A stretch of DNA of 64,000 bases from a virus, in the IMG/VR virus record IMGVR_UViG_3300025381_000001; one strand, given 5' to 3'. A program made the position numbers and the translations under genes. Shown here piece after piece: positions 2,221-63,163 of the stretch. The notes beneath the pieces were generated by a model. That model saw only the letters and a list, made by a program, of their open reading frames with translations. It was not told where the DNA came from and searched no databases. Within the stretch, counting starts at the first letter, position 1. Each line of letters begins with the position of its first letter.

Positions 2221-2853
2221 TCAACCCTTAAAAATGTCTTTGAGCAAGTCGAACAACTGACGCGCTTGCACGACAGTCAACTTATTCACCACGCCCTCGG
2301 CTGTCCAGTTGCGAGTAAGCACGATCGACACAGGAGCCTGCGCCTCTTGCTTCGCACCAGTATCGACAGTCAACGCGGCAATGCCTGCTGATTTCTTTGT
2401 GGGCTTCTTGATAGCTTTGGCTGCTTTAGCGCTTTTGATCTTCTTGGCAAGGCTGTACGTCTTGTACTCTGTACCCACTGCATGAAAGCCACCCTGCACA
2501 TCTCGCGTCATCAATCCCACGCGCAACATTTGATAGATTAACGAGTCGGTGGAGTTGGTCTTGTACCCGCGCTTGAGCAGTGCTTCCACGATGTCTTTGC
2601 CCTTCAATCCGGGATTGTCTCGAACGAACTCGAAGGTGGCGCGTGTCACGCCGTTCTTTTCTTGGAAGCGGTGGGTTTGTTTGGTGGTGATGGTTTCAGT
2701 TGTTTGCATAGTGTCTTTCGATTGGGGTTGAGGTTGGGTTGATTGAAGCGTCTTGTTGTCCTCGTCTTCCCACTGTTTGAGTGTGACGGCAAGGTTGTTT
2801 TCGAATCCGCGATTGAGTAGTGCGGTGCTCAGTGCAGTTTGTAGATCAGGCAT
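2221..2853 (-). CDS. hypothetical protein, possible winged-helix DNA-binding region
   Basis: ORF with an AGGAGAAAG SD and its own sigma70-like promoter upstream. The central FEFVRDNPGLKGKDIVEALLKRGY segment looks wHTH-like. Confidence 0.65.
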   Translation of the reverse strand: MPDLQTALSTALLNRGFENNLAVTLKQWEDEDNKTLQSTQPQPQSKDTMQTTETITTKQTHRFQEKNGVTRATFEFVRDNPGLKGKDIVEALLKRGYKTNSTDSLIYQMLRVGLMTRDVQGGFHAVGTEYKTYSLAKKIKSAKAAKAIKKPTKKSAGIAALTVDTGAKQEAQAPVSIVLTRNWTAEGVVNKLTVVQARQLFDLLKDIFKG

Positions 2854-2879: not shown

Positions 2880-2908
2880 AATATATCCGAATCGGCTGAG
2901 GTTGTCAA
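2880..2908 (-). promoter_or_regulatory. sigma70-type promoter (TTGACA-17-TATATT) for 2221..2853
   Basis: On the minus strand TTGACA sits at 2908-2903, followed by a 17-nt spacer and TATATT at 2885-2880, about 25 nt before the SD. Confidence 0.55.
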
Positions 2909-2964: not shown

Positions 2965-2983
2965 GGGGGTCGCGTTGACCCCC
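2965..2983. repeat. early-arm palindrome copy 1 (GGGGGTCgcgtTGACCCCC)
   Basis: Inverted repeat 16 nt beyond the stop of 2999..4060. It is followed by the motif TTGACACCCGTCA, which overlaps that stop codon. Confidence 0.85.
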
Positions 2984-2998
2984 AAAGATTGACACCCG

Positions 2999-4060
2999 TC
3001 AAACGAGCGCGGGTACTTTCGATGGTTGGTACGCCCAGTTCAGATGCCAACACATGACTTCCGCAACAGTCTCGGGGTCGTTACGCACGAAGTCGTGCAT
3101 GGTGGCTATGTCGTTGTCCAGACACGCCGCGATCACCTCGGCCTCGAAGTCATTTGTTGCGTTGTGTGTTGTCAACGTGGCCTCGAATGTACCCATAATG
3201 ATGTTGATACAAGTTATAGGCATCTCATCGAAGTACGCCGACAACAGTTCTGCATCCGCTTGCATCAGCGCGTCACCAAGCTCGTATGCGAAAGGCGCTT
3301 CTATCTTTGATTCTTGTTTTGCAAACTCGTTGTCAGTCATAGCGTGGATGCCCTTGGTCGATGTGAACTCGGTGCCAGCACTAGACCATGAGCCGATGAT
3401 CTCCTCATCCTCATCCCACATCTCGTAGCCATTGGAGAGATGACCATGCCACGCACGCTTGGTTGACTTGTAGTAGTTGGGGATGAGTTTGCTTGGCTTC
3501 CATGCGTAGGTATTGCTGAACCACATACCGTCATGCTCAACGCCTTGGTCATAGTTGACGTGGCTGATGCGCCCCTCGCCATTCATGAACACAAAGCGAT
3601 TGTCGCCAATGAACTCGGCCACCATTGTCAAGAAGCCTTTGTCGTACACGATGTCGGGATACTTCACTACGGTGTCATGCAGGTAGTCCTTGATGAAGTG
3701 ATACGTATCGCTACGCGCCGTGTCTGCCGCGTTACCTGTGTGCAGTACGCCGTTGTGCATCATTGCAATGAAGCCTGGCACTACGTCATAGGGATGGCAG
3801 TTGCTCAAGTCGGTGTGGCCGTGTGTAGTCCAGCGGAAGTGAATCGCCAGATCACGGTCGTCTTGCGGCATACGCTCGATCATGTTGCGTGCCTCGCCAA
3901 TGTTCTTGGGTAAGAACTTGTTGGCCTTGAGACCCTTGGATGTGCCGTACATGATGCCGATACCGTCAGGGTTGGAGGAGTAGATATCCGCAAGCAAGCC
4001 GTGAGTGTCCAGCAAGGTTGAACGGATTTTGTTTGATTGACCAGAGATGATTAAACACAT
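2999..4060 (-). CDS. Ntn-hydrolase / class-II glutamine amidotransferase-like (YafJ-type) protein
   Basis: Starts MCLIISG, so Cys follows the initiator Met. Also has DGIGIMYG, HFRWTTHGHTDLSNCHPY and MMHNGVL motifs in the typical class-II GATase order. Confidence 0.7.
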   Translation of the reverse strand: MCLIISGQSNKIRSTLLDTHGLLADIYSSNPDGIGIMYGTSKGLKANKFLPKNIGEARNMIERMPQDDRDLAIHFRWTTHGHTDLSNCHPYDVVPGFIAMMHNGVLHTGNAADTARSDTYHFIKDYLHDTVVKYPDIVYDKGFLTMVAEFIGDNRFVFMNGEGRISHVNYDQGVEHDGMWFSNTYAWKPSKLIPNYYKSTKRAWHGHLSNGYEMWDEDEEIIGSWSSAGTEFTSTKGIHAMTDNEFAKQESKIEAPFAYELGDALMQADAELLSAYFDEMPITCINIIMGTFEATLTTHNATNDFEAEVIAACLDNDIATMHDFVRNDPETVAEVMCWHLNWAYQPSKVPALV

Positions 4061-4074
4061 GATGATTTTCCTAG

Positions 4075-4266
4075 TTAGAAGTAGTTTGGGTTGAAAGGGG
4101 TGAGAGTGCTGTAGTAAAGCTGGCCGTTGGCGTCACGCGATACTGTGTAGGTGAGTGAACTGTGGTCAACACGAGGTGAGGGCTGGTTCAGCATTTGCAT
4201 ACGAATACGATTTGCTGCGGCATTAACTGCCGCGTCAAAGTGACCCCCGTTGGGCACGTTGCACAT
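4075..4266 (-). CDS. hypothetical small protein (start uncertain)
   Basis: ORF between the amidoligase and the GATase-like gene. It overlaps the amidoligase 3' end, and an alternative ATG at 4200 is possible. Confidence 0.4.
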   Translation of the reverse strand: MCNVPNGGHFDAAVNAAANRIRMQMLNQPSPRVDHSSLTYTVSRDANGQLYYSTLTPFNPNYF

Positions 4267-6082
4267 CACGCGACTCGGTAGTCACAGGCTCGGGCGCAGG
4301 GGTTACGTCTTCGCAGGTTGTGGCCGTTGCTTCCTTGACGCGCTTGCTCAAGCCATACCATTTGGCAAGGTTCGAGTACGCATTGTTGGTAGTCTTGAGC
4401 CATGCAACAAACGCTTCACCGTTCAAGTCACGCCACGATGCTGTGCGACAGAACATCACGACCGCATGAGTCCACTCGATCTGTGCAAGCAATCGTTCTT
4501 TCTTGAGCGAAGCCCTGAAGATACGAAGCTCGATAGTGTCGTAGCCACGGCGGTTGTAGTTGTCCTTGAGGCCTAGTCGGTTGCACTCGGAGCCTGTCAG
4601 GTTGTTCGTGTTAATCATGCGATAGCGTTGATCTGACTTACCCTTCAACGCCTTGCTCGGGTTGGTGAGGATGTCTTGATGCTCGGCGGCGCAATACTCA
4701 CGCGCTTGGTTGTCGCGGTTTGGATGACGACCTGCGATCTGGCGCACAAAGTCTGCGTTTGACTCGGCGTTGATGAACATGAAAAACTTACCGAGCGTCA
4801 GCTTGGAGAAGCCATGCGAGTCGATGTGGATGTGCATACCGCAACGCTTGGCATCCCATGCCCGAAACCCTTGTGGCACAACCCAGTCCTTGAACTGCTC
4901 GATGTGATGAGCCAGTCGGCGCGGTGCAGTCACGATCTCTAAGCCGTCGTCAGGCAAAGAGCCGTCATACTTACACACCACATAATCCTCGCCCAAGGCA
5001 GAGCGAATCTTGGATACCGCATCGCGCTTGTAGTTGTCCTCCCCTACGCCAATCTCCAACTCGATGCCCATGAGCAAGTCGCTGTAAGGTGTTGGCGTGA
5101 ACGATGTGTCTCGGTTCAGATGGTCGAGCACGTTGGTCGAGTAGTCCATGAGGGCGCTGGGATCACCATCGTCTCCGTCTTCGTCAGCCTCGTCAGAGTC
5201 ACGGTCATAGGAATAATACGCATCGTGGTTGTCGCTCCAGTACGCATCGTCACGCGACCAGTACTCGTTTCTATCCTCTACGAATACAGCATCATCACGG
5301 AAGCACGCATCGCACCACGTATCGTCACGCACATCATGCGTCTCGCCTGTGTACTCCATGTGGCCGCAGTCACAAACTTTTAGGTCGGTGTACAAACCCT
5401 TATCGTCTAAGAAGTCTTTAACACGGTCAAACCAATCGGATAGACCGTTTTGCACAGTCATGTTTTCATAGTGCTCGTGTATCCAGTCGTCAAACACAGA
5501 TACGTCATCGTCTGCAACGGCTTGCTTGATCGCGTTGTGACACGCGGCTGTAACAGCTTGTCTGTGCTTGTAGTCCGCCGCAGAGTAGGACATGGTGCCT
5601 TTGTAGACTGCATATGGGCGTGGTTTGTCGAGGCGCTCTCTCATCTGCCGCGTGACACGGCTTATGAATTTGTCCACAGGGCCAACGGTGTTCATGTACA
5701 TACGGTCAAATAACTTGATCTTGACCCCCAAACCTTGCTCGGGGTCACTAAGCCAACGCATTTGAATGGGCGTCAGTTCGGTGACTTGCAGGTTTTCGCT
5801 AGTGATATGGCCGTAGTGGGTATGTATAAAATCTTCTGGACTTTCTTCTGTGCTTGCACTCAGCACGTGCAGGTTTTCTGGGTTGAAACGGGTAGCGCGG
5901 TTTGTGAACAGCGAGGTTCTACGGTTTGTGGTCGATGTGCTTGCGTACAAGCCTGCATAGATTTTGCGGTGGCTTTGGTCATTTCTGATTTCGATTTGCT
6001 CTGCGATGAGCACCGTGTGCGATCTCCGTTTTGGTGTATCGAAAGAATCATTGGTTTGAAAGGTTGCGAAATAAAGTTTCAT
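4235..6082 (-). CDS. glutamine-synthetase-like amidoligase (Amidoligase_2 family) with long N-terminal extension
   Basis: ATG at 6082 has an AGGAGAA SD. The C-terminal half carries GIELEIGV, DGSLPDDGLEIVTAP, GMHIHID, RYRMIN and TIELRIFRASL motifs. The N-terminal half has CDCGH..CDAC and a poly-acidic run. Confidence 0.7.
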   Translation of the reverse strand: MKLYFATFQTNDSFDTPKRRSHTVLIAEQIEIRNDQSHRKIYAGLYASTSTTNRRTSLFTNRATRFNPENLHVLSASTEESPEDFIHTHYGHITSENLQVTELTPIQMRWLSDPEQGLGVKIKLFDRMYMNTVGPVDKFISRVTRQMRERLDKPRPYAVYKGTMSYSAADYKHRQAVTAACHNAIKQAVADDDVSVFDDWIHEHYENMTVQNGLSDWFDRVKDFLDDKGLYTDLKVCDCGHMEYTGETHDVRDDTWCDACFRDDAVFVEDRNEYWSRDDAYWSDNHDAYYSYDRDSDEADEDGDDGDPSALMDYSTNVLDHLNRDTSFTPTPYSDLLMGIELEIGVGEDNYKRDAVSKIRSALGEDYVVCKYDGSLPDDGLEIVTAPRRLAHHIEQFKDWVVPQGFRAWDAKRCGMHIHIDSHGFSKLTLGKFFMFINAESNADFVRQIAGRHPNRDNQAREYCAAEHQDILTNPSKALKGKSDQRYRMINTNNLTGSECNRLGLKDNYNRRGYDTIELRIFRASLKKERLLAQIEWTHAVVMFCRTASWRDLNGEAFVAWLKTTNNAYSNLAKWYGLSKRVKEATATTCEDVTPAPEPVTTESRDVQRAQRGSL

Positions 6083-6112
6083 TTGAATTCTCCTAGTTGA
6101 TGAAAAACATTT

Positions 6113-6129
6113 GGGGTCAGCTTGACCCC
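6113..6129. repeat. early-arm palindrome copy 2 (GGGGTCAgctTGACCCC)
   Basis: Lies between the stop of 6159..6491 and the amidoligase start. The CTGACACCCGTCA motif overlaps that stop codon. Confidence 0.85.
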
Positions 6130-6158
6130 TAAAAACGTCAGTAAGGGACTGACACCCG

Positions 6159-6491
6159 TCACTTTGTGATCTCCTCTCTTTCTTTTGGGTTACACGATTT
6201 GCATTGGTGGTCGTAGGTCTGCTCGTACTCCTGCGCTTCTTTATGCGTGTCGAACATATGTTCTTCTCCGCACTCGAAACATGGGTAGCACCACGTTGGT
6301 TCTGAGCCTTCGCTACCAATGAAGATACACGCGCTCCATCCTTCGTCATACACATACACATTGCCCGAGTTAGGGTTGATACCTGCGTCTGTGTACCTAG
6401 TGGTGGTCAAGCCTTCGGCCTCTAGCTTGGTGATGCACTTGATGAGGCGGCGCAGTTCGCGCCCGTGAAATTTCTCAAAGAAGTTTTCCAT
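6159..6491 (-). CDS. hypothetical protein with C-terminal zinc-ribbon-like Cys pairs
   Basis: GGAGAA SD. Contains CYPCFECGEEH...CKSC. Confidence 0.65.
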   Translation of the reverse strand: MENFFEKFHGRELRRLIKCITKLEAEGLTTTRYTDAGINPNSGNVYVYDEGWSACIFIGSEGSEPTWCYPCFECGEEHMFDTHKEAQEYEQTYDHQCKSCNPKEREEITK

Positions 6492-6671
6492 TTAGTTCTC
6501 CTTTCTGTTAGTTTTCACAACCACCGTCTCGCCTGTGCGTGTTTGGTATCCCAGCGCGTAGTCGTTGGCTATGCGGTACTTGTTAGTCACCAGCAACAAC
6601 TCACCGTCTTGCGTGTACACGCGGTACTCAAACCCTTCAATGGGTTGGTTGGTACTCGTTTCTTGACTCAT
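6492..6671 (-). CDS. hypothetical small protein (59 aa)
   Basis: The ATG at 6671 is chosen because the longer track ORF would run through palindrome copy 3. Its stop abuts the next gene's start. Confidence 0.5.
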   Translation of the reverse strand: MSQETSTNQPIEGFEYRVYTQDGELLLVTNKYRIANDYALGYQTRTGETVVVKTNRKEN

Positions 6672-6740
6672 ACAATTCCCTTTCGGCCAGCTAGTACAGG
6701 CAGGGAGCGCGGCGCGGCTAAACCATGCGCTCCCCGATTC

Positions 6741-6757
6741 GGGGTCACGTTGACCCC
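6741..6757. repeat. early-arm palindrome copy 3 (GGGGTCAcgtTGACCCC)
   Basis: 17 nt beyond the stop of 6774..7577. The TTGACATCCGTTA motif overlaps that stop codon. Confidence 0.85.
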
Positions 6758-6773
6758 TAAAAATTGACATCCG

Positions 6774-7577
6774 TTAAAGGCGTTCCAGAATGGTTGGCGT
6801 TTGCGCGAACTCCTCGCGTGTCAGGTAGTACCCACTCCATGTTGGCGGCAAGGCTTCGCCTTCCTCGGCGTCACGTACCCACAACAACACCTGCCTCATC
6901 TTGGCAATAGAGTCTTCGTGCTTGGCTATGCGCTTGCGTATGGCGGCGCTCTTGTCTTCCATCTTCATCATGCGGATAGCGAGCAGGTCGTGCTCGGCTT
7001 TAGCCAACTCTAGTTCTGTGCGTTTTTGTAGCTTGTTGCGTTTGTCGCGCCAGCCCTCACCCTTGGGTATCGTGCGCTCGAAGGGCGTCTTGCGTTTGGC
7101 GTATTGCTTGTACGGTATGGCATCGAACAACGCACGCACCTCGGCCTTGTCGCTCTCGGATACCCAATCGACCCAGTGGTGGCCTTTGTTGGGAATAGGA
7201 ATTCCCTTGCGCTCTAGCTTTTCTCGTAGCTTGGAAGGCACAACGCCATGCTTGCGCCGCGCAAGAGTCAGCACCCCGAGCAGTTCGCGCAGTACTTCGG
7301 CGTACCTATCCAATGCTTCTTGGCGTGGGATATCTTCGGTGTTCGTGCAACGCATACGCTCGACAATGCGTAGTTCATGCTTGGCGGGGTCAATGATTGG
7401 CGCCCACAATAGGTCGTGTTGTATCCGCGTGATGCGCTCGGTTCGCAGTTTGCGTTGTTGTTCGGCCACAGTTTTCATGATGGTTTCAATCACGAGGGGT
7501 GGTTTCTTTTGTCGGGTCAGGTGGGTGAGCAATTCGTTTTGCGTCATACCCATATATTGCCTGTGCTTGTAGTACAT
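6774..7577 (-). CDS. hypothetical protein (267 aa, basic, coiled-coil C-terminal part)
   Basis: ATG at 7577 has an AGGAGA SD 7 nt upstream. Long ORF; no domain recognised. Confidence 0.7.
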   Translation of the reverse strand: MYYKHRQYMGMTQNELLTHLTRQKKPPLVIETIMKTVAEQQRKLRTERITRIQHDLLWAPIIDPAKHELRIVERMRCTNTEDIPRQEALDRYAEVLRELLGVLTLARRKHGVVPSKLREKLERKGIPIPNKGHHWVDWVSESDKAEVRALFDAIPYKQYAKRKTPFERTIPKGEGWRDKRNKLQKRTELELAKAEHDLLAIRMMKMEDKSAAIRKRIAKHEDSIAKMRQVLLWVRDAEEGEALPPTWSGYYLTREEFAQTPTILERL

Positions 7578-7646
7578 CAGATATCTCCTGTTAAAAAACA
7601 ATGTCGGGCAAGTATAGCAGGTATTGGGGCTGGATACCGCAAAGTA

Positions 7647-7896
7647 GACAACACTTCGGACACGCCAAAATCCGCATGGTTGCTAGGTTTCTTGCAAAAA
7701 GTGTCCAACTTTATATCGTTTAAAAACAATACTAATGGGTTTAAAGGTTAAGCCAAGGTTAGCCAAAGACAAAGGACAACAAACAAATAAACACTTGTCT
7801 ATATATATGAATATACTTTAATAGATATTATATTAGGACACGCTTTAACCTAGAGCCAATGCCCATGCGGGTTGCCGCGTGTCCGAAGTGTTGTCC
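7647..7896. repeat. large imperfect inverted repeat flanking an AT-rich core
   Basis: 19-nt perfect arms (GACAACACTTCGGACACGC at 7647-7665, reverse complement at 7878-7896). Further matched blocks are CCGCATGG/CCATGCGG, CTAGGTT/AACCTAG and GTGTCC/GGACAC. The AT-rich core is about 7707-7835. Confidence 0.85.
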
Positions 7897-7900
7897 AATG

Positions 7901-7942
7901 TGCGATATCCACTCCTACCTTGATTTTTAGGGATATCGCACC
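7901..7942. repeat. 11-bp inverted repeat GTGCGATATCC...GGATATCGCAC
   Basis: Perfect 11-bp arms separated by 20 nt, immediately next to palindrome copy 4. Confidence 0.8.
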
Positions 7943-7946
7943 TTTT

Positions 7947-7964
7947 GGGGTCAGGTTGACCCCC
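7947..7964. repeat. early-arm palindrome copy 4 (GGGGTCAggtTGACCCCC)
   Basis: Lies 2-3 nt beyond the TAA stop of 7967..8197. Confidence 0.85.
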
Positions 7965-7966
7965 AA

Positions 7967-8197
7967 TTAGCACAGCTTCATTTGAATGGGAGCTTGCATC
8001 TTCTCTAGCCATGCTTCGAAGGCGGCTTCACCACTCAAGCATAGGCCGCGTGAACTGTTCTTGCGATAGACGTTGACAAGAAAGAAGTCGGGTTGTGCTT
8101 TGCCTTTGGGGTAGTAGTACATGACGTTGTATTCGCCGTGGATAGGGAAGGTGAACGTGCCCATGTGTTCGATTGTGGGTTGTGTTGTATTGCGCAT
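7967..8197 (-). CDS. hypothetical small protein
   Basis: ORF track entry with protein-like composition, within the early operon. Confidence 0.6.
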   Translation of the reverse strand: MRNTTQPTIEHMGTFTFPIHGEYNVMYYYPKGKAQPDFFLVNVYRKNSSRGLCLSGEAAFEAWLEKMQAPIQMKLC

Positions 8198-8206
8198 GAT
8201 GAGTCC

Positions 8207-8383
8207 TTAGAATTCGTTGATTAAGAGGGTGAGAACCGAGCCGAGGAGGAATGGGCAACCAATGGTGAGAGTGAGCCAAAGGTAGCCGCCCTCGTATTGA
8301 GCAAGGCCAGAGACGCCAACAGCCAAGCCGAATAGAAGTGTTGTTATTGCCAGCGAATAGGCCAGCGCGAGTTTGGAAGTCAT
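8207..8383 (-). CDS. hypothetical two-TM membrane protein (58 aa)
   Basis: ATG at 8383 after GAAAGG. Two hydrophobic spans (LAYSLAITTLLFGLAVGV and LTIGCPFLLGSVLTLLI). Confidence 0.55.
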   Translation of the reverse strand: MTSKLALAYSLAITTLLFGLAVGVSGLAQYEGGYLWLTLTIGCPFLLGSVLTLLINEF

Positions 8384-8393
8384 GGGATACCTT

Positions 8394-8588
8394 TCAGGTC
8401 GTGCGTTTGGGGTTAAGTTGAGAGAGCATGGCAAGGTCAGTCACCATGATGTAGTTTGATTTGTTCAGGGGAACAACAGTGTGGCGGCGTTGTTGCGCGT
8501 GGGTTTCGCCGCAGGATAGGCAGAGTTTGAAGCCCAACGCCCAGCGTTGTGGGCGCACGGCATCGCCGCATTTTGTGCAGTGGTGCAT
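8394..8588 (-). CDS. C4 zinc-finger protein, TraR/DksA-type zinc-ribbon-like
   Basis: CTKCGDAVRPQRWALGFKLCLSC resembles the CxxCGxxIPxxR...CxxC pattern of TraR-family zinc fingers. No N-terminal coiled coil is present. Confidence 0.4.
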   Translation of the reverse strand: MHHCTKCGDAVRPQRWALGFKLCLSCGETHAQQRRHTVVPLNKSNYIMVTDLAMLSQLNPKRTT

Positions 8589-8621
8589 GGTTTACCTTTG
8601 TGCTTGACACGTTTTGGAACA

Positions 8622-8649
8622 GCGGCGCGGCCTCACATTCCCGCGCCGC
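8622..8649. other. GC-rich stem-loop (9-bp stem GCGGCGCGG/CCGCGCCGC)
   Basis: Intergenic between 8679..9083 and 8394..8588. A TTTT run follows on the plus strand only and the tract on the minus strand is weak, so its function is unclear. Confidence 0.5.
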
Positions 8650-8658
8650 CACGTTTTC

Positions 8659-8676
8659 GGGGTCAGCGTGACCCCC
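8659..8676. repeat. early-arm palindrome copy 5 (GGGGTCAgcgTGACCCCC)
   Basis: Lies 2-3 nt beyond the TGA stop of 8679..9083. Confidence 0.85.
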
Positions 8677-8678
8677 AA

Positions 8679-9083
8679 TCATTCAAACGACACCGAAGCC
8701 TTCAACGCCACGATAAAGGCATTGAATTCGGCCTTGGTCAAGCCTGCCGCGATAACTTCTTTGGTCACGCTAGACACCAATGCCTTGGGCGCGACAACCT
8801 TGCGTGATTGCGTGGGTGCTTTACCTTGGGGGCGGTTAGGGTGCAACTTGAGCAAACGCGTCATTTTTTGCTCAGGCGCGGATTCCTTGGTGAATGTGAG
8901 GTAGTCGCCTTGCTTGGACTTATGGGCTTTTACGGTGTAATGCTTTTCACAAACGGCCACGACAATGGCGCGGTATTCGTCAAACGTGATTCGCGCCGCC
9001 TCTGCCGCAATTTGGTCAACGGTGAGTTGTTGCTTGTCATCTGTTTTGAGCAGAGTGGTGATGAGAGTATTGAGAGTAGTCAT
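8679..9083 (-). CDS. hypothetical protein, first gene of leftward early transcript
   Basis: The ATG at 9083 is chosen because the longer track ORF would include palindrome copy 6. Protein-like composition. Confidence 0.6.
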   Translation of the reverse strand: MTTLNTLITTLLKTDDKQQLTVDQIAAEAARITFDEYRAIVVAVCEKHYTVKAHKSKQGDYLTFTKESAPEQKMTRLLKLHPNRPQGKAPTQSRKVVAPKALVSSVTKEVIAAGLTKAEFNAFIVALKASVSFE

Positions 9084-9105
9084 GATGTGTACCTTTAAAA
9101 GATTC

Positions 9106-9122
9106 GGGGTCAACGTGACCCC
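9106..9122. repeat. early-arm palindrome copy 6 (GGGGTCAacgTGACCCC)
   Basis: Located in the predicted 5' UTR, between the extended -10 promoter and the 9083 start. Confidence 0.85.
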
Positions 9123-9157: not shown

Positions 9158-9166
9158 ATTATAGCA
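9158..9166 (-). promoter_or_regulatory. extended -10 promoter element (TGcTATAAT), leftward early promoter candidate
   Basis: The minus strand reads TGCTATAAT (consensus -10 with a TGn extension) about 75 nt upstream of the first early gene. Confidence 0.5.
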
Positions 9167-9329: not shown

Positions 9330-9395
9330 GACCCTACCCACAAACTTTTTATAAAAAATCCAAACATCTCTTGTCAAACGGTGTACACTATGTTT

Positions 9396-9625
9396 GTTGG
9401 TGGGGGTGCTCTAGCGAAGCACAACCTGACAAGGGTAGGCAACTGGGTGCAAATCCCAGACACCAACAACCAAGACGCATGAGGATTGGCTCCGAGAGTG
9501 CCGGAGCATAGAAGGGCAGTGCCCCCTACCAGTCCTCAGTCGTGTTGGTTGTGATAACCCGCCCCCGGCAGCGCGATTAAGTTCCGCGTGTGGCCACACC
9601 GCATAGTGAGTCGGGCCCAACCAAC
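9396..9625 (+). ncRNA. structured non-coding region made of three tRNA-sized closed helical modules (tRNA-like, non-canonical)
   Basis: Closing helices are GTTGGTG/CACCAAC (9396-9467), GAGGATT/AGTCCTC (9481-9537) and GTTGGTTG/CAACCAAC (9544-9625). Module 1 has a D-like arm (GTGC..GCAC) and a T-like arm (CTGGG-TGCAAAT-CCCAG). The overlapping ORFs look spurious. Confidence 0.35.
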
Positions 9626-9708: not shown

Positions 9709-9783
9709 CTGTGCGTAGCGCAGTGGTAGCGTTCTCGTTTTGGAAACGAGGGGTCGCTGGTTCGAATCCAGCCGCACAGACCA
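9709..9783 (+). tRNA. tRNA-Pro (anticodon TGG), CCA encoded
   Basis: Manual cloverleaf: acceptor CTGTGCG/CGCACAG (C1-G72), D arm GCGC-AGTGGTA-GCGT, anticodon arm CTCGT-TTTGGAA-ACGAG, T arm GCTGG-TTCGAAT-CCAGC, then A-CCA. Confidence 0.9.
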
Positions 9784-9903: not shown

Positions 9904-9927
9904 GCCCCCGATATTTCTACCGGGGGC
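9904..9927 (-). terminator. intrinsic-terminator-like hairpin oriented for the minus strand
   Basis: GCCCCCG/CGGGGGC 7-bp stem. On the minus strand it is followed by TTTTTTATT. There is no U-tract on the plus strand. Confidence 0.45.
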
Positions 9928-10027: not shown

Positions 10028-10642
10028 ATGCTAGAACACCTGATTGACTTCATCCCACCTGTGGCTGCGCACGCGGCGCGGGGCACCATGCCTTTGGATA
10101 GGGCAGAGCCGGATGAAACGCTCAACGCACAAGTCAAGACAACCGAGTGGCTCGAACGCCTAGGCATCGTGGACGACAACGCCACGCTCAAAGAAGCCGA
10201 CGCCAACGCCGCCCGGAAAGTGTTCAGTGTGCTGGCCGGTACCGCGCCGGCAGCAGAAGCCAAAACCCAACTCACCCAACTCAAGACGCCAGAGGCTGTA
10301 CGCCATCTGGTCACAATGCTGTCCGCCTACGACTGGGAGTTCGTGGAGATGGCCAAAGAGTTGCGCGGCATGGCCGTGGCCAAAATCTTGGAAGAGACCA
10401 ATCACCCCGACGCACGCATCCGCTTGAAGGCGCTTGACATGCTGGGCAAGGTCACGGAGGTGGGGCTGTTCACCGAACGCATCGAGGTCAAGAAGACCGA
10501 GTTGCCCGACGCCGAGATCGACAAGAAGATCAAAGACAAGCTGGCCAAGTTCATGGGCGTCATCGACGCCAATGTGACCGATGTTAGTGAGCGCTCACCA
10601 ACAACCGTAGACCATGAAACTCAACGACCTGAATCTGACTGA
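10028..10642 (+). CDS. terS: terminase small subunit (putative)
   Basis: Lies immediately upstream of terL and overlaps it. ATG at 10028 follows AAGGA. The PDARIRLKALDMLGKVTEVGLF segment is typical of small-terminase helical cores. Confidence 0.6.
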   Translation: MLEHLIDFIPPVAAHAARGTMPLDRAEPDETLNAQVKTTEWLERLGIVDDNATLKEADANAARKVFSVLAGTAPAAEAKTQLTQLKTPEAVRHLVTMLSAYDWEFVEMAKELRGMAVAKILEETNHPDARIRLKALDMLGKVTEVGLFTERIEVKKTELPDAEIDKKIKDKLAKFMGVIDANVTDVSERSPTTVDHETQRPESD

Positions 10643-12164
10643 GGTCGAGATCAAGACCCTCCAGTTCGCGCTGCCCAAAATGTCGGGCGCGGAGAAGCTT
10701 GAGTTGTTGGAAATGCTGGAAGAGCGTGAGCGTCGCATGTCTCTGTCAAACGCTAGACTTGGCATGTTGGACTTTGCTAAACATGTGTACCCGGGATTTA
10801 AAATTGGGCCGCACCATAAGAAATTAGCAGGCATATTTACCGACGTGATCGAGGGGCGCAAGAAGCGCGTCATCATCAACATCGCGCCACGGATGGGCAA
10901 GTCCGAGTTCAGCTCCTACCTGTTCCCTGCTTATTTTTTAGGCAAGTACCCAGAGAAGAAGATCATCATGGGCACGCACACTGCGGGTCTGTCCGAAGAC
11001 TTTGGGCGGCGCATCCGCAACTTGATCGACTCAGATGAGTACCGCGAACTGTTCCCCAAGACGTTGGTGGCCGATGACCAAAAGGCGGCTGGCAAGTGGA
11101 GCACCGCTGCTGGTGGCCAGTACTACGCTGCGGGTGTGGGCGGCGCTCTTGCTGGGCGTGGTGCGGATTTGTTCGTTATTGACGATCCTCATTCTGAGCA
11201 GGACGTGAAGATCAACAGCCGCTTGGCCTTTGATACCGCGTGGAACTGGTTCCAAACTGGGCCGTTGCAGCGTTTGATGCCTAACGGGGCGATCATTGTC
11301 ATCATGACGCGCTGGAGTTTGATCGACCTCACTGGCCGACTCATTGACTACCAAACGCGCAACCCCGACGCTGACCAGTGGGAGATCGTGGAGCTGCCGG
11401 CCATCCTTGAGTCCGAAGACCCAGAGACGGGCGAGACCGTTGAGAAGTCACTCTGGCCAGAACAGTGGCCGCTGGAGCAGTTGAAGGCCAAACGCGCCAA
11501 CTTGGATCCCAAGTTCTGGAACGCCCAGTACATGCAACAGCCCACCTCCGACGCGGCGGCGATCATCTCAAGAAAGAGCTGGCGCATCTGGCCACAAGAC
11601 GACCCACCCCGCTGCGACTACATCATCCAGTCATGGGACACGGCGTTCGAGACAAAGACCAGCGCCGACTATTCCGCCTGCACAACGTGGGGCGTCTGGT
11701 ACAACGAGGAAGAAAACAACAAGGCGCAGATCATCTTGCTCGACGCCTTCAAAGCACGCATGGCCTTCCCCGAGCTAAAGCAGACCGCGCTCAAACACTA
11801 CAAGCAGTGGCAACCCGATGCGTTCATCGTGGAAAAGAAGGCCGCTGGCGCTCCACTAATACAAGAGCTGCGCAACATGGGCATCCCCGTGGACGAGACC
11901 AACCCTAGTCGTGGCAATGACAAGGTGGTACGATTGAATGCAGTCTCGGACTTGTTCGCCTCGGGCATGGTCTGGGCACCAGACACACGCTGGGCACGCG
12001 AGGTGATTGAAGAGGTGGCGTCATTCCCCAACGGAGAAAACGACGACTACGTGGATACCACATCGCAGGCATTGATGCGTTTTCGCCAAGGTGGGTTCAT
12101 TGCGCTGGACTCTGACGAGAAGGACGAACCTCTTTACTTCCGTCGCAAAGCAGCGTATTACTAA
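10614..12164 (+). CDS. terL: terminase large subunit
   Basis: Walker A IAPRMGKSE, Walker B GADLFVIDDPHSE, and a C-terminal RNaseH-like nuclease motif IIQSWDTAFETKTSADYSA. Confidence 0.9.
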   Translation: MKLNDLNLTEVEIKTLQFALPKMSGAEKLELLEMLEERERRMSLSNARLGMLDFAKHVYPGFKIGPHHKKLAGIFTDVIEGRKKRVIINIAPRMGKSEFSSYLFPAYFLGKYPEKKIIMGTHTAGLSEDFGRRIRNLIDSDEYRELFPKTLVADDQKAAGKWSTAAGGQYYAAGVGGALAGRGADLFVIDDPHSEQDVKINSRLAFDTAWNWFQTGPLQRLMPNGAIIVIMTRWSLIDLTGRLIDYQTRNPDADQWEIVELPAILESEDPETGETVEKSLWPEQWPLEQLKAKRANLDPKFWNAQYMQQPTSDAAAIISRKSWRIWPQDDPPRCDYIIQSWDTAFETKTSADYSACTTWGVWYNEEENNKAQIILLDAFKARMAFPELKQTALKHYKQWQPDAFIVEKKAAGAPLIQELRNMGIPVDETNPSRGNDKVVRLNAVSDLFASGMVWAPDTRWAREVIEEVASFPNGENDDYVDTTSQALMRFRQGGFIALDSDEKDEPLYFRRKAAYY

Positions 12165-12924: not shown

Positions 12925-15552
12925 ATGGCAATCGACAAAGGCTTATACCAAGCTCCGCAGGGCATCGAAGACTTGGCTCAAAATGAAGAACCCATCGAGA
13001 TCGAGATCATCGACCCCGAAGAAGTGGACATCCACGCAGGCGACACGGACATCTCCATCAAGCCCGGCGGCGAAGATGATTTCAGCCGCAACTTGGCCGA
13101 AGAGATGGACGAGGGCTATTTGTTGTCCTTGGCCGGCGATCTGGTGGAAGACATTGAAGGCGATCGCGCATCCCGCAAAGACTGGGAGAAAGCCTACGTT
13201 GAGGGCATCAAGCTCTTAGGCCTCCAGTACGAAGAGCGCACAGAACCTTGGAACGGCGCGTGTGGGGTCTTCCACCCCATGATTACCGAGGCCGTGGTGC
13301 GCTTCCAGTCAGAGATGATTACGGAGACGTTCCCAGCCCAAGGCCCAGTGCGCACCAAGATCATCGGCAAAGAAACGCCTGACATTAAGGAAGCCGCCAC
13401 TCGCGTCGAAGAAGACATGAACTATGAGTTGACCGAAGTGATGACCGAGTTCCGCTCGGAGCACGAGCGCATGTTGTGGAGCTTGCCCGGCTCGGGCTCG
13501 GCGTTCAAGAAGGTCTACGAAGACGGCAGCTTGGGACGTCAGGTCTCCATGTTCGTGCCGGCGGAAGATGTGCTGCTGCCTTATGGCACCACCGACTTGG
13601 ACACTTGCTACCGCATGACCCACACCATGCGCAAGACCAAGAATGAAATCTTGAAGATGCAGCACGCTGGGTTCTACAAAGACGTGGAGCTGGGCGACCC
13701 AGACAAAACCCAGACCGACATTCAAAAAGCCAAGGACAAAGAAACCGGGTTCAGCGCCAACGACGACGCACGCTATACACTCTACGAGTGCTTGGTGGAC
13801 TTGGACTTGGAAGGGTTTGAGGACACCGATGGTGACGGCAACGAAACTGGCATCGCATTGCCATACGTAGTTACCCTAATCAAAGGCACCAATCAAGTTC
13901 TGTCAATTCGCCGCAACTGGAAAGAAGATGATGAACACCGCCTCAAACGACAATACTTCGTCCACTACCAATATATCCCCGGCTTCGGAGCCTACGGCTT
14001 TGGACTCTTCCACCTCATCGGCGGCTTTGCCAAGTCAGCCACAAGCATCATGCGCCAGTTGGTGGATGCGGGAACACTATCGAACCTACCCGGGGGCCTC
14101 AAGTCTCGTGGACTTCGCATTAAGGGTGATGACACACCGATAGCTCCCGGCGAGTGGCGCGATGTGGACGTGGGTTCGGGCGCGATGCGCGACAGCATCT
14201 TGCCGCTGCCCTACAAGGAACCCTCGGCGGTGCTAGCAGGTCTGTTGGACAAGATCGTTGACGAAGGCCGTCGTTTTGCCGCAACAGCGGACATGCAGAT
14301 CAGCGACATGTCTAGCCAAGCGCCGGTGGGCACAACCCTCGCGCTGCTGGAGCGCCAGTTGAAAGTGATGACCGCCATTCAAGCGCGGATGCACCACACC
14401 TTCAAGAAAGAGTTGAAGCTGCTCGCAGAGATCATCCGCGACAACAGCCCAGAAGACTACGACTACGACCCCGAGTACGGCGACAAGTCAGCCAAGAAGT
14501 CGGACTACTCCAAGGTTGACATCATCCCCGTGAGCGACCCCAACGCCGCGACCATGAGTCAGCGCGTGGTGCAGTACCAAGCCGTCATCCAAATGGCACA
14601 GATGGCTCCCGACATCTACGACTTGCCGCACCTACATCGCTCCATGCTGGAGGTGTTGGGCATCAAGAACGCCGAGAAGCTTGTGCCGCTCGAAGAGGAC
14701 ATGAAGCCTCAAGACCCTGTGACAGAGAACATGTCCGTGCTGAAATGCTCGCCGGTCAAAGCGTTCCTGTTCCAAGACCACAAGTCGCACATCGCCACCC
14801 ACATGGCGTTCGTCCAAGACCCCATGATCCAGCAGTTGGTTGGCCAAAACCCCAAGGCGCAGCAGATGATGGGCGAGATGATGGCGCACATCGCGGAGCA
14901 CACCGGCTACCAGTACCGCCAGCAGATCGAGCAACAGCTCGGAATGCCCCTGCCTCCCGAAGACGAGAAGTTGCCCCCAGAGATGGAAGTGGCGCTGTCG
15001 GGCATGATGGCGCAAGCGGCCAACCAGTTGCTGCAACAAAACCAAGCTCAGGCCGCACAAGCCCAAGCCCAGCAACAAGCCCAAGACCCTGTGTTGCAGA
15101 TGCAGCAGCAAGAGCTGCAAATCAAACAAGGCGAACTCCAGCTCAAACAGCAAAAGCTGCAAATGGAGATGGCCGAGAAAGAAAAGCGTTTGCAAGTGGA
15201 CTCCTCCTACAAGGCCGACCAGTTGCACCTGCAAGAGAAGAAGATTCAAATCGACGCTGCCGAAAAAGCAGACAAGATGCACATCGCCCAGCAAGGCCAA
15301 AACCCACAACTAGACGCCATGCGCAACGCGCACGATCTAGCTTTTGAACAACAACGTGCCCAACATGAACTGGCGGGTGCGCACGCGAAGAACCAAATGG
15401 CCGCGCAGCTCCACGCCCAAGACGTGATGCACGCCCAGCAAACCCACCAACAAAAGCTTGACCATGCCAAAGAAGTTGCGGCGATGAAGGCCGAGTTGAT
15501 GCGCAAACAGGCTGAACAAGCCACACAAAAACCCAAACAGGAGAATGAATGA
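12925..15552 (+). CDS. portal protein with long C-terminal Gln/Ala-rich coiled-coil extension
   Basis: 875 aa, positioned after the terminase, with a large conserved-looking core. The last ~200 aa are Q/A/K/E-rich heptad-like sequence (QAQAAQAQAQQQAQ...LQLKQQKLQMEMAEKEKRLQ). Confidence 0.8.
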   Translation: MAIDKGLYQAPQGIEDLAQNEEPIEIEIIDPEEVDIHAGDTDISIKPGGEDDFSRNLAEEMDEGYLLSLAGDLVEDIEGDRASRKDWEKAYVEGIKLLGLQYEERTEPWNGACGVFHPMITEAVVRFQSEMITETFPAQGPVRTKIIGKETPDIKEAATRVEEDMNYELTEVMTEFRSEHERMLWSLPGSGSAFKKVYEDGSLGRQVSMFVPAEDVLLPYGTTDLDTCYRMTHTMRKTKNEILKMQHAGFYKDVELGDPDKTQTDIQKAKDKETGFSANDDARYTLYECLVDLDLEGFEDTDGDGNETGIALPYVVTLIKGTNQVLSIRRNWKEDDEHRLKRQYFVHYQYIPGFGAYGFGLFHLIGGFAKSATSIMRQLVDAGTLSNLPGGLKSRGLRIKGDDTPIAPGEWRDVDVGSGAMRDSILPLPYKEPSAVLAGLLDKIVDEGRRFAATADMQISDMSSQAPVGTTLALLERQLKVMTAIQARMHHTFKKELKLLAEIIRDNSPEDYDYDPEYGDKSAKKSDYSKVDIIPVSDPNAATMSQRVVQYQAVIQMAQMAPDIYDLPHLHRSMLEVLGIKNAEKLVPLEEDMKPQDPVTENMSVLKCSPVKAFLFQDHKSHIATHMAFVQDPMIQQLVGQNPKAQQMMGEMMAHIAEHTGYQYRQQIEQQLGMPLPPEDEKLPPEMEVALSGMMAQAANQLLQQNQAQAAQAQAQQQAQDPVLQMQQQELQIKQGELQLKQQKLQMEMAEKEKRLQVDSSYKADQLHLQEKKIQIDAAEKADKMHIAQQGQNPQLDAMRNAHDLAFEQQRAQHELAGAHAKNQMAAQLHAQDVMHAQQTHQQKLDHAKEVAAMKAELMRKQAEQATQKPKQENE

Positions 15553-54212: not shown

Positions 54213-54398
54213 TTAGATGAACAGGTCTTTTTGTGCAGGGTCTTTTGCTGGAAACGCATCCAAGGGCGCGAGGGCAATGAAGCGGCGCAACAATTCACGC
54301 TGCCACACCACGGACATGCCGTATTCAGAATCCATAGCAATCGCAGACAAACGAATCAACTCGCTGTTGCTCAAGTTTCGAGGTTGTAAATCTTGCAT
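54213..54398 (-). CDS. hypothetical small protein
   Basis: ATG at 54398 follows GGAGAAAAAT. Overlaps the 3' end of the HTH gene. Confidence 0.5.
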   Translation of the reverse strand: MQDLQPRNLSNSELIRLSAIAMDSEYGMSVVWQRELLRRFIALAPLDAFPAKDPAQKDLFI

Positions 54399-54649
54399 AT
54401 TTTTCTCCACGCTTCGTCAGCGGTTTTTGTTTCTTTGAGAATCTTCAACAGTAGTTCAGCGCGTTGTTCGTAGGCAGGGAAAATGTCGCCACCCTTGAAC
54501 CAGTTGTAAGCTGTTTGACGTGAAACGCCCAGCGCTTTAGATACGCGCACTACGGAGAAGTCGCGGTGGATAGCCCAACGGCCAAGCTGGTTGCCCAGCG
54601 TCTTTGGCGCGTCTGCTATTTCGTCGATTGTTTTTTGAGAGTAGGGCAT
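54371..54649 (-). CDS. helix-turn-helix DNA-binding protein
   Basis: VVRVSKALGVSRQTAYNWFKG is a classic HTH. Confidence 0.65.
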   Translation of the reverse strand: MPYSQKTIDEIADAPKTLGNQLGRWAIHRDFSVVRVSKALGVSRQTAYNWFKGGDIFPAYEQRAELLLKILKETKTADEAWRKICKIYNLET

Positions 54650-62583: not shown

Positions 62584-62888
62584 TTCATCATCTCCTTGTC
62601 AGGTGCGTCACTTTGATTGACCTCCACCATAACCTCATACGCATCGCTAATGATCTGCGTGGTCAGCATCTCGTCCACGTTCACGCCAATCACAATGCCT
62701 TGGGGCGACTTGTCGTTATCCACAATCACCACGGCACGCATGTCGGGGTCAACGTAGCACTTGGCCAGTGTTGAAAACAGCATCTTCATGTGGTCGCGCT
62801 TGCGCTCGGGCAGCGACATGATGAGTTCTAGAAAAGCGTTTTGCGCTTCTGTTAGCGAGTCCTTGACGGCTTGGCTTATTTGTTCCAT
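62580..62888 (-). CDS. hypothetical acidic protein
   Basis: 102-aa ORF with overlapping coupling to both neighbours. Confidence 0.6.
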   Translation of the reverse strand: MEQISQAVKDSLTEAQNAFLELIMSLPERKRDHMKMLFSTLAKCYVDPDMRAVVIVDNDKSPQGIVIGVNVDEMLTTQIISDAYEVMVEVNQSDAPDKEMMN

Positions 62889-63163
62889 TTCAATAATTCC
62901 TTTATGTTGTCTACGTTGTGTTCATCAATCACGAAAGCCAAACCTTTGGCTTGTTGAATGCGCTCGATTTCGCGCAGTTGCAGTGGCGTGGGCTTGTTGC
63001 CGTTGGCCTTGCATTCAAACGCTACAAACAGTCCGTTGTAGCAACCAATCACATCGGGTATCCCTGCACGTCCCATGCCGTTTTGCACAGGCGAGAAGTT
63101 GTAGATACCCATTGCTTCAAGGTGTTTCTTTAGCTTGGCTTTTACTTTTGCTTCGGGGGTCAT
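62876..63163 (-). CDS. VRR-NUC domain nuclease
   Basis: GIPDVIGCYNGLFVAFECK is a PD-(D/E)XK core, and the size and context are typical of VRR-NUC. Confidence 0.75.
   Translation of the reverse strand: MTPEAKVKAKLKKHLEAMGIYNFSPVQNGMGRAGIPDVIGCYNGLFVAFECKANGNKPTPLQLREIERIQQAKGLAFVIDEHNVDNIKELLKWNK

Follow-up and report, generated by a model that had tools for sequence, protein, structure and literature searches.

Why does a phage carry the same 17-bp palindrome six times within a single transcription arm, in five cases shortly behind a stop codon? The question is raised by IMG/VR virus record IMGVR_UViG_3300025381_000001, a 64,000-nucleotide stretch of DNA (hereafter the window) that contains repeated copies of GGGGTCA-N3-TGACCCC. 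Protein-family matches and gene layout identify the window as an uncultured podovirus-like phage, and every gene from position 9083 down to position 1 is on the minus strand of its leftward early arm. We find that the palindrome is one type of a family-wide, type-switching system and is not special to this phage, and that its type co-varies statistically with the first early protein, gp1. It is rather probable that the palindromes are regulatory sites recognised by gp1, whichever the sign of the effect. The particular form of this proposal that we favour, in which gp1 would control read-through by host RNA polymerase in the manner of the lambda N protein and its nut sites, is more tentative and has somewhat less than an even chance of being right.

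When the window was scanned with the pattern GGGGTCA-N3-TGACCCC, allowing up to two mismatches, five exact copies and one copy with a single mismatch were found (Table 1). A further match with two mismatches, at 4231..4247, is probably not a functional copy because it overlaps a stop codon and forms no hairpin in the predicted fold. The chance expectation is 0.08 matches, and seven matches were reached in 0 of 100 shuffles of the sequence. All six copies are intergenic and lie within the minus-strand early operon, as an earlier, sequence-only reading of this DNA had described, although the first of them begins at 2966 and not at 2965. The remaining 55 kb of the window holds zero additional copies, and its isolated half-sites show no notable enrichment. 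That reading had also named frequency inside coding regions as a check on its claim; coding sequence and the remainder of the genome are free of the motif, so refutation on this count does not apply. Its placement of five copies shortly past stop codons (3-29 nt as measured here) and of the sixth in the 5' untranslated region (UTR) of gene 1 was borne out as well. This sixth copy (9122..9106) lies 35 nt past the extended -10 element TGcTATAAT and 22 nt ahead of the gene 1 ATG.

The stems of the window copies are invariant and their loops differ in sequence (cgt, cgc, acc, acg, and agc), and the loop is 3 nt long in every copy. As had been proposed, the first copy reaches this length only with a nonstandard closing pair, which is G.T on the plus strand and A.C on the sense strand. 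The minimum free energy (MFE) structure of the sense RNA contains the hairpin in five of the six contexts. The flanks have the form TTN...NAA, so both strands read T-rich, hairpin, A-rich, and no T tract adjoins any copy in the window. The suggestion that this is the opposite of an intrinsic terminator holds for the window phage but not for its relatives, since 30% of the copies across the family have a T tract of their own. A plain intrinsic terminator, which is defined by a GC-rich hairpin with an immediate U tract, is thus ruled out for this phage; in relatives, separate canonical terminators adjoin the palindromes.

A scan of IMG/VR with the exact motif returned many contigs, 16 of which come from relatives of the window phage with 65-98% nucleotide identity (the loci compared are given L numbers below). 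These 16 same-core relatives show the same placement of copies in the early arm, past a stop codon and ahead of a ribosome-binding site. Their inner core, GGGTCA-N3-TGACCC, is invariant, the outer pair is G-C, C-G, or A-T, and the flanks are lineage-specific (AAAA...TTTT, CTC...GAG, or TCAC...GTGA). A wider set, fetched with the terminase large subunit (TerL), comprised at least 597 related IMG/VR contigs, 55 of which have early arms long enough for analysis. About 45 of these 55 arms carry a genome-specific palindrome that is repeated 3-9 times at equivalent places. The half-sites fall into at least 14 types, and the centres measure 0-4 nt; the types include TGACCCC, TGACCCG, TGACCGG, TGTCCCC, TGTCCCA, TGTCGCA, TGTCCAC, TGTCTCA, TCTCCCC, TCTCTCC, TCTCTCT, GTGTTCC, GTTCCGCC, and GTTCTCCC. 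Some phages that seemed to be without a motif have type-specific hairpins with 6-nt loops, and in a few arms, such as those of L209 and L241, two sub-types related to each other coexist. Switches of type are seen between phages with 93-99% identity in TerL, such as L213, L217, L209, and L216, or L190 and L193. Across the family, 180 copies were counted in 276 kb of early arms, compared with 1 copy in 322 kb of the remainder of the same loci.

The two arms of the palindrome vary together. Among 64 distinct copies, the outer pair is CG in 28, GC in 23, AU in 3, GU in 3, and another combination in 7, and the next pair is GC in 60 and CG in 4; the dyad covariation score is 0.207, compared with 0.130 in shuffles. 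Symmetric variants could also be created by mutation alone, through template-switch "quasipalindrome correction," and for this reason we take the covariation as evidence for dyad symmetry and not as proof of a folded RNA. The centre of the element is itself mobile: between phages that are >94% identical, the 3-nt centre of two copies (6741-6757 and 9106-9122, compared with L124, L122, and L073) is inverted between acg and cgt, the former copy reading acg in the window and cgt in L124 and L122. This suggests hairpin-mediated flipping or gene conversion between copies.

We surveyed without bias every open reading frame (ORF) family present in at least 14 typed arms, and gene 1 had a standardised effect of 1.13 (p = 0.001), whereas the other families ranged from -0.13 to 0.30 (hth267, a helix-turn-helix (HTH)-like protein of 267 aa, 0.21; gp76, -0.13; frames adjoining TerL, 0.26-0.30). 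gp1 was the only ORF family surveyed that co-varied with palindrome type, and the association is a statistical one. Clustering of gp1 sequences groups phages by palindrome class, and mean gp1 identity is 0.286 for pairs of the same class and 0.159 for pairs of different classes. The area under the curve (AUC) for palindrome class is 0.72 for gp1, 0.55 for TerL, and 0.48 for hth267, with permutation p values of 0.0002 for gp1 and 0.0006, at a weaker effect, for TerL. Within gp1 the class signal resides in residues 1-88 (effect 1.18) rather than in the C-terminal module of ∼35 aa (0.43), which occurs in three or four interchangeable variants. The single sequence per genome, the joint switching of its copies, and the co-variation with a first gene that is universally present and evolves fast point to a trans-acting factor, for which gp1 is the best candidate; binding of the palindrome by gp1 is what we infer from these sequence comparisons.

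A hidden Markov model search found gp1 at the same place in nearly every early arm. The family comprises 415 proteins in a database of 5.8 billion, all of them unnamed and none with a Pfam domain. Searches with 25 diverse members (gp1 and 24 relatives) returned no Pfam or PHROG family, and no homologue of gp1 was found among cultured phages in GenBank. The AlphaFold model of gp1 has a mean predicted local distance difference test (pLDDT) score of 61, rising to ∼80 for core residues 30-85; a fold search of PDB and BFVD, and a sequence search of PDB, gave zero matches.

Other proteins with a plausible DNA-binding domain were also considered. hth267 was rejected as the binding protein, since alleles that are 30% identical coexist with identical palindromes and show no association with type. 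The sequence-only reading had proposed two phage proteins for binding assays, a winged HTH (wHTH) protein encoded at 2221..2853 and an HTH protein encoded at 54371..54649. Neither is the best candidate: the former shows no association with palindrome type (in a comparison of 7 genomes only), and the latter is encoded outside the early arm. PDB sequence searches with wHTH210 and hth267 returned nothing useful.

The position of the copies relative to promoters and terminators points to what the element might do. In the window and in L046, L195, L201, L213, and L235, the spacing between a TGnTATAAT promoter and the first copy recurs, with the palindrome ∼+23 to +45 behind the promoter, which it does not overlap. 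The most conserved position in the family, occupied in nearly all typed relatives, is the one straight after the gene 1 stop codon, and the most conserved arrangement is gene 1 stop, palindrome, and canonical terminator, with no promoter before gene 2. In many relatives this terminator, t1, has a conserved 3' half (...GCCGCTGTTTC(T/A)TTCC) and stands 0-10 nt past the palindrome, and the start of gene 2 leaves no room for a promoter behind it. L216 and L210 have a second tandem of palindrome and terminator ahead of the non-coding region upstream of hth267, and in the L081 group the last copy, followed by T6, abuts the ribosome-binding site of the next gene. Over the family, a separate canonical terminator lies within 40 nt of 8.7% of copies, compared with 3.6% of random positions. 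In a promoter scan of the window, copy 2982..2966 was the only one with a promoter behind it; past each of the others, a ribosome-binding site comes within ∼5-30 nt. Since gene 1, site, and terminator succeed one another without an intervening promoter, and since T tracts are frequent, the element appears to be tied to termination or read-through, and we favour nut-like control for this reason.

A second motif stands at some of these boundaries. Its sense orientation is a stop codon followed by CGG(G/A)TGTCA, and the proposal that such a sequence overlaps the stop codon at three of the copies proved correct (2990-3001, 6150-6161, and 6765-6776). Motif 2 occurs at these three sites on the sense strand only, is able to form a mini-hairpin of 4-5 bp, and stands 7-26 nt ahead of a palindrome or terminator. 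It accompanies just three of the six window palindromes and is kept at gene or module ends in relatives that have different palindromes.

Based on these observations, we propose the following sequence of events. Host RNA polymerase would start at sigma-70-type promoters upstream of gene 1, transcribe gene 1, and then reach the palindrome and, directly behind it, terminator t1, beyond which gene 2 has no promoter of its own. Once gp1 had accumulated it would recognise the dyad element, with specificity residing in its N-terminal domain, and would alter the behaviour of the polymerase at the gene 1 boundary and at later boundaries. The alteration we favour is read-through, that is, a locally acting antitermination of the nut/N kind that would open the delayed-early genes, and the last copy would mark the border between early and middle genes.

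In lambda, the arrangements cro-nutR-tR1 and pL-nutL-N-tL1 place a nut site ahead of a terminator in comparable fashion. The N/nut logic is summarised in the introduction of PMC4496689, and the likeness to it has several parts. In both cases a small basic regulator comes from the first early gene, and short sites able to form a hairpin are placed both in the leader and just behind the first gene, before a terminator, so that the site is in the transcript upstream of terminators. In both, site and protein are specific to the phage type and change together, a co-variation that is statistical in the present family, and N acts, as gp1 is proposed to act, on host RNA polymerase in early operons. 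Five differences stand beside these likenesses. gp1 does not resemble N and yielded no arginine-rich motif; the palindrome has a free loop and an invariant stem, the reverse of boxB, which is read by its loop; it has no boxA-like partner, and no flanking box is common to all copies; there are 5-9 sites per operon rather than 1-2; and the sites, which are found in either orientation, are true palindromes.

Further observations weigh against nut-like control by gp1. Free loops, invariant stems, and 5-9 sites are more typical of operators in duplex DNA, as is the occurrence of centres in both orientations (AA/TT and acg/cgt) and of types that are perfect palindromes up to the dyad. An RNA-strand signature was sought in an excess of G.U over A.C mismatches on the sense strand, and ∼12 and ∼8 events, respectively, gave no signal. 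No recognisable nucleic-acid-binding fold was found in gp1 by the Pfam, PHROG, and fold searches. The association of gp1 with type is imperfect, in that two gp1 clades have the TGACCC half-site in common and L192 combines a window-like gp1 core with a GTTCTCCC palindrome, and TerL too carries a small but significant phylogenetic signal for palindrome type. The copy in the 5' UTR is dispensable in L122/L183, which is 92% identical to the window and lacks it; the first copy is absent from the L191 group too. Finally, the hairpin of the window that is homologous to t1 (8650..8622) is followed by a weak T tract only.

Much of this evidence would suit the main rival, in which a dimeric phage protein, either gp1 or a different one, would bind the palindromes as operators in duplex DNA and repress early transcription by stopping elongation at many places, as in a Cro-like shut-off or at symmetric stoperators. 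We judge this explanation unlikely, although it is the strongest of the alternatives. It accounts for the invariant half-sites of 6-7 bp around an unconstrained centre whose length is fixed in each genome, for a total length of 14-18 bp, for orientation independence, and for the perfect palindromes in L201, L123, and L191. The number of sites per operon gives a density similar to that of stoperators, and in the L033 and L217 groups the first copy precedes a -10 element by ∼50 nt. The type of the site follows gp1, and stoperator motifs likewise co-vary with their repressor (PMC6550527). However, the sites do not overlap core promoters, a roadblock would make the conserved terminator right behind the site superfluous, and no HTH or ribbon-helix-helix domain is detectable in gp1. 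A single dimer geometry is also awkward to reconcile with one gp1 clade that spans arm spacings of 2 to 7 nt and with the 6-nt loops and 8-9-bp stems of L255, L241, and L242. In addition, the outer two pairs co-vary within genomes with few asymmetric intermediates, which fits pairing better than independent half-sites.

Repeats of a comparable kind are known from mycobacteriophages. The Cluster A stoperators (L5 and Bxb1) are likewise numerous, genome-specific short motifs in short intergenic gaps of transcribed arms, they act on elongation and not on initiation, and their motif co-varies with a phage protein (PMC6550527, PMC9283540), as the palindrome type does here. Stoperators differ in being asymmetric 13-14-bp sites that are oriented with transcription, are bound by a monomeric HTH repressor, and are spread genome-wide, over both arms, in temperate phages; the present sites are symmetric and confined to the early arm, and the candidate protein has no HTH. 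Among the ORFs scanned, which were part of those in the window, no integrase, repressor, or RNA polymerase family was detected. A closer match in geometry is given by the 17-bp dyad repeats of the Cluster O mycobacteriophages, TGTTCGG-N3-CCGAACA (PMC4351075), which have the same 7-bp arms and 3-bp centre, invariant arms, and a variable or flipping centre, and which lie for the most part between genes, in a single transcription arm of phages that appear to be lytic. They number >30 copies, a third of them inside genes, and are genome-wide, and no partner protein, type switching, or terminator association was reported for them. Since the Cluster O repeats are functionally unexplained, the likeness gives no mechanism.

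Another way to explain the palindromes is to dispense with the trans-acting factor and regard them as RNA hairpins of the polycistronic early mRNA that act by structure only; they might stabilise 3' ends, serve in processing or as insulators, or terminate weakly. Copy-and-paste spread, together with concerted evolution through recombination, would account for their uniformity within a genome, and gp1 would be associated with the type through genetic linkage. The spacing of the hairpins (3-30 nt from the preceding stop codon, 5-12 nt to the Shine-Dalgarno sequence that follows), the predicted folding of the sense RNA, the T tracts in 30% of copies, and the dyad covariation are all compatible with this explanation. 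Recombination at the repeats is documented, and the stem-loops of T4-type phages also have a lineage-specific consensus (PMC4122927). We nevertheless consider it improbable. The inner 4-5 bp do not vary among the copies of a genome, nor among phages with only 65-75% nucleotide identity in their conserved genes, and all copies switch jointly between near-identical phages. gp1 follows the type, whereas the neighbouring hth267, gp76, and frames adjoining TerL do not. The same arms use ordinary terminators of unrelated sequence elsewhere. In general, neither structure alone nor plain terminators would need one shared sequence per genome, and the joint switching of all copies and their co-variation with gp1 are likewise difficult to account for by either.

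A role of the repeats in recombination has direct support from gene content. The window was compared with L122, L103, and L183, which are 92-98% identical to it elsewhere, and the segment from 11 nt past copy 7963..7947 to the stop codon and motif 2 at 6777 was found to be non-homologous. The swapped segment consists of an AT-rich gap and hth267, whose alleles are 30% identical. This result answers the proposal that relatives be compared for cassettes that swap at these sites, the swap in question lying between copy 7963..7947 and motif 2 with copy 6757, and it supports the earlier idea that the repeats form recombination boundaries. The gap is a non-coding stretch of 370 nt (7578-7946, minus strand) upstream of hth267 (6774-7577). 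It is bracketed by a 49-nt inverted repeat (7631-7679 and 7863-7911, 84% complementary) and contains GGACAC/GTGTCC repeats. Gap and gene are exchanged jointly between close relatives, as one module, which could be an origin-plus-initiator or a regulator-plus-operator unit.

From this swap we conclude that the palindromes serve as exchange points for early-gene modules, as a by-product. That recombination is their primary role, with repeats and motif 2 maintained for cassette exchange between co-infecting phages of the same type, is very improbable. The hth267 alleles are shuffled relative to both TerL and palindrome type, and centres flip between near-identical phages, as such a role would allow. 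On the other side, selection for evolvability is a weak force for holding 14 bp invariant, other differences between the same phages (loss of gene 8207..8384 and a replaced 5' UTR) do not end at palindromes, few rearrangements were noted at the analogous Cluster O repeats by their authors (PMC4351075), and the arrangement of gene 1, palindrome, and terminator is left unexplained. The precedent for such a role is the PeSL promoter-stem-loop modules of T4-type phages, in which repeated stem-loops with a lineage consensus flank variable early genes and modules are exchanged at the repeats (PMC2839356, PMC4122927). Homology breaks at the elements in both systems. PeSLs, however, are composites of a terminator stem-loop and a sigma-70 early promoter, whereas most palindromes have no adjoining promoter because a ribosome-binding site follows within 5-12 nt. 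The sequence of the palindrome is also much more strictly conserved, and its type co-varies with a protein.

The palindrome might instead be the site of a host factor, as a repetitive extragenic palindromic (REP)-like element, a host-specific terminator, or an uptake-type sequence, with its type following the host and gp1 adapting to the host as well. A 23-nt pattern, TTNGGGGTCANNNTGACCCCNAA, gave 57 hits in 185,579 species genomes, and ∼35 of these belong to one family of 57-bp palindromic repeats. The family is present in many copies in metagenome-assembled genomes of Anaerolineae/Promineifilaceae (isolate SJ142, Candidatus Leptofilum; L125-L181, for example, L136:5642). The bacterial repeat has the form GGGTTTTTTCAGTTTTT-GGGGTCA-ttt/aaa-TGACCCC-AAAAACTGAAAAAACCC, so its centre equals the phage motif. 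It matched no Rfam family and may be a REP-like element or a miniature inverted-repeat transposable element; no transposase-like gene was seen in the window. This exact core is the point in favour of a host-factor site, which still has only a slim chance of being the explanation. The phage shares the central 17-23 nt only and lacks the long arms of the bacterial repeat, the confinement to the early arm is at odds with a generic REP element or terminator that would also serve late genes, and phages with 99% identical TerL carry different types.

The least probable explanation, which we reject, is that the palindromes are DNA-hairpin promoters of the N4 type for an injected virion RNA polymerase, for instance, a domain of the 2509-aa protein encoded at 43639-51168, because no ORF scanned matched an RNA polymerase and promoters of the host kind are present. 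The likeness lies in a 5-7-bp stem with a 3-nt loop, in a few copies restricted to the first-entering early region and placed 15-30 nt before start codons, and in the presence of both conserved and merely covarying stem positions (PMC4496689). Against it, the 2509-aa protein matches only LPD38 and uncharacterised PHROGs and gave no PDB sequence match, good sigma-70 promoters stand ahead of gene 1 and of later units, N4 needs specific loop bases and a conserved stretch from -17 to +1, whereas the loop is free here and the downstream flank is not conserved, and the most conserved copy follows gene 1 and precedes a terminator. Like the plain intrinsic terminator and the host REP element, the N4-type hairpin promoter is unsupported. 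Two further candidates were dropped: a mimic of CRISPR repeats (Racr/SRU), since the flanks are not conserved and the loops vary, and the T7 primase site GGGTC, since other palindrome types lack GGGTC.

To return to recognition by gp1, the roles listed by the sequence-only reading include the models that survive here, namely a nut-like signal, a dimer operator, an RNA 3'-end hairpin, and a recombination boundary. By its defining features, the element belongs to none of the N/nut, stoperator, PeSL, N4-promoter, and intrinsic-terminator families. The logic of one regulator with multiple cognate sites is already known from N/nut and from repressor and stoperator, and the geometry equals that of the Cluster O repeats; what differs is the symmetric, stop-adjacent placement in the early arm only, the family to which the protein belongs, and how widely the type switches.

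The features of the window to which these conclusions refer are collected in Table 1. The early genes encode products of 134, 64, 58, 76, 267, 59, 110, and 615 aa, with coordinates that agree with independent Joint Genome Institute gene calls on another contig with the same gene 1. Besides hth267, the arm encodes small uncharacterised proteins, a DksA-like zinc finger, and a pair made up of a class-II glutamine amidotransferase (GATase)-like protein (2999-4060) and an amidoligase (PF12224; 4235-6082), both on the minus strand, which closes the early arm and is kept in several relatives. A 110-aa ORF farther along the same strand (1365-1697) matches the C-terminal domain (CTD) of the RNA polymerase alpha subunit strongly (PF03118, E = 2.7e-20). 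It is unusual for a phage to encode an alpha-CTD-like protein, and this match suggests that contacts of host RNA polymerase with UP elements or activators are manipulated.

Ejection and lytic proteins, like TerL and the portal, are encoded on the plus strand, whereas primase/helicase, helicase, exonuclease, and DNA polymerase are encoded on the minus strand at 51-62 kb. The 2509-aa protein, which has an LPD38 "large polyvalent protein" domain and no match over its first ∼1800 residues, is probably an injected multi-domain protein. A 95-aa ORF (62876-63163, minus strand) with weak likeness to Hjc/RecU Holliday-junction resolvases is kept in every relative that reaches that region, including L010, L012, and L034. 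Two plus-strand tRNA genes, for Ala with the unusual anticodon AGC (9378-9467) and for Pro-TGG (9709-9783), lie between the divergent early and late arms. When Rfam covariance models were run against the window, the gathering score was reached by a tRNA only, the one for Pro, and the palindrome matched no family. When the early arm and the structural region were compared with GenBank phages by megablast, zero matches were obtained. The nearest TerL is 52% identical (DSL-LC04 and pelagiphage HTVC027P), and the DSL-LC04 genome has a different organisation and was uninformative.

Table 1. Coordinates of the palindromes, associated signals, and selected genes in the window
Feature	Coordinates	Strand	Remarks
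Extended -10 element TGcTATAAT, predicted to drive gene 1	9158..9166	-	35 nt ahead of palindrome copy
Palindrome copy, 5' UTR of gene 1	9106..9122	-	Exact; sense GGGGTCA cgt TGACCCC; hairpin in MFE fold
Gene 1 (gp1), 134 aa, isoelectric point 9.6, basic	8679..9083	-	Proposed partner in trans for the palindromes
Palindrome copy, 3 nt after gene 1 stop	8659..8675	-	Exact; near-universal position in the family
GC-rich hairpin (GGCGGCGCGGG-N8-GCCGCGCCGC, then TGTTCC), 8 nt past palindrome	8622..8650	-	Homologous to t1 of relatives
Palindrome copy, 3 nt after stop of 76-aa gene	7947..7963	-	Exact; left border of swappable module of AT-rich region and hth267
Motif 2, copy 3 (TAA + CGGATGTCA)	6765..6776	-	Right border of swapped hth267 module
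Palindrome copy, 16 nt after hth267 stop	6741..6757	-	Exact; motif 2 ahead of copy; loop acg
Motif 2, copy 2 (TGA + CGGGTGTCA)	6150..6161	-	
Palindrome copy, 29 nt after stop of 110-aa gene	6113..6129	-	Exact; ∼30 nt before amidoligase ATG
Degenerate match, two mismatches	4231..4247	-	Overlaps amidoligase stop codon; no hairpin in predicted fold
Motif 2, copy 1 (stop TGA + CGGGTGTCA)	2990..3001	-	
Last palindrome copy, 16 nt after stop of GATase-like gene	2966..2982	-	One mismatch; end of early arm; none downstream
Sigma-70-type promoter TTGACA-17-TATATT (11/12 matches)	2880..2908	-	Follows last palindrome; starts wHTH unit (2853..2221)
Strong canonical terminator, 10-bp stem then T6	9904..9927	-	
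TerL	10614-12164	+	
Portal	12925-15552	+	
2509-aa polyvalent-type protein	43639-51168	+	Downstream of ejection and transglycosylase genes

A bolder version of the proposal, which we regard as rather unlikely, is that gp1 founds a new class of small proteins that read a hairpin, in RNA or in DNA extruded in the transcription bubble, by its stem and not by its loop. At each gene boundary, such a protein would locally reprogram the RNA polymerase of the host, and the at least 14 interchangeable specificities would then amount to "transcriptional immunity types" in a very abundant family of uncultured lytic phages. If gp1 and the palindrome are a cognate pair, the family would constitute a natural collection of at least 14 orthogonal pairs, each made up of a small protein and a site of 14-18 bp, acting on bacterial transcription and of use as genetic parts. 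The proposal offers a testable candidate function for >400 "hypothetical" proteins and could illuminate similar unexplained repeats, such as the 17-bp repeats of Cluster O. If true, it would explain how abundant uncultured phages that use host RNA polymerase only time the expression of their early genes, and because the same repeats delimit exchanged modules, it would link gene regulation to the mosaic evolution of these genomes.

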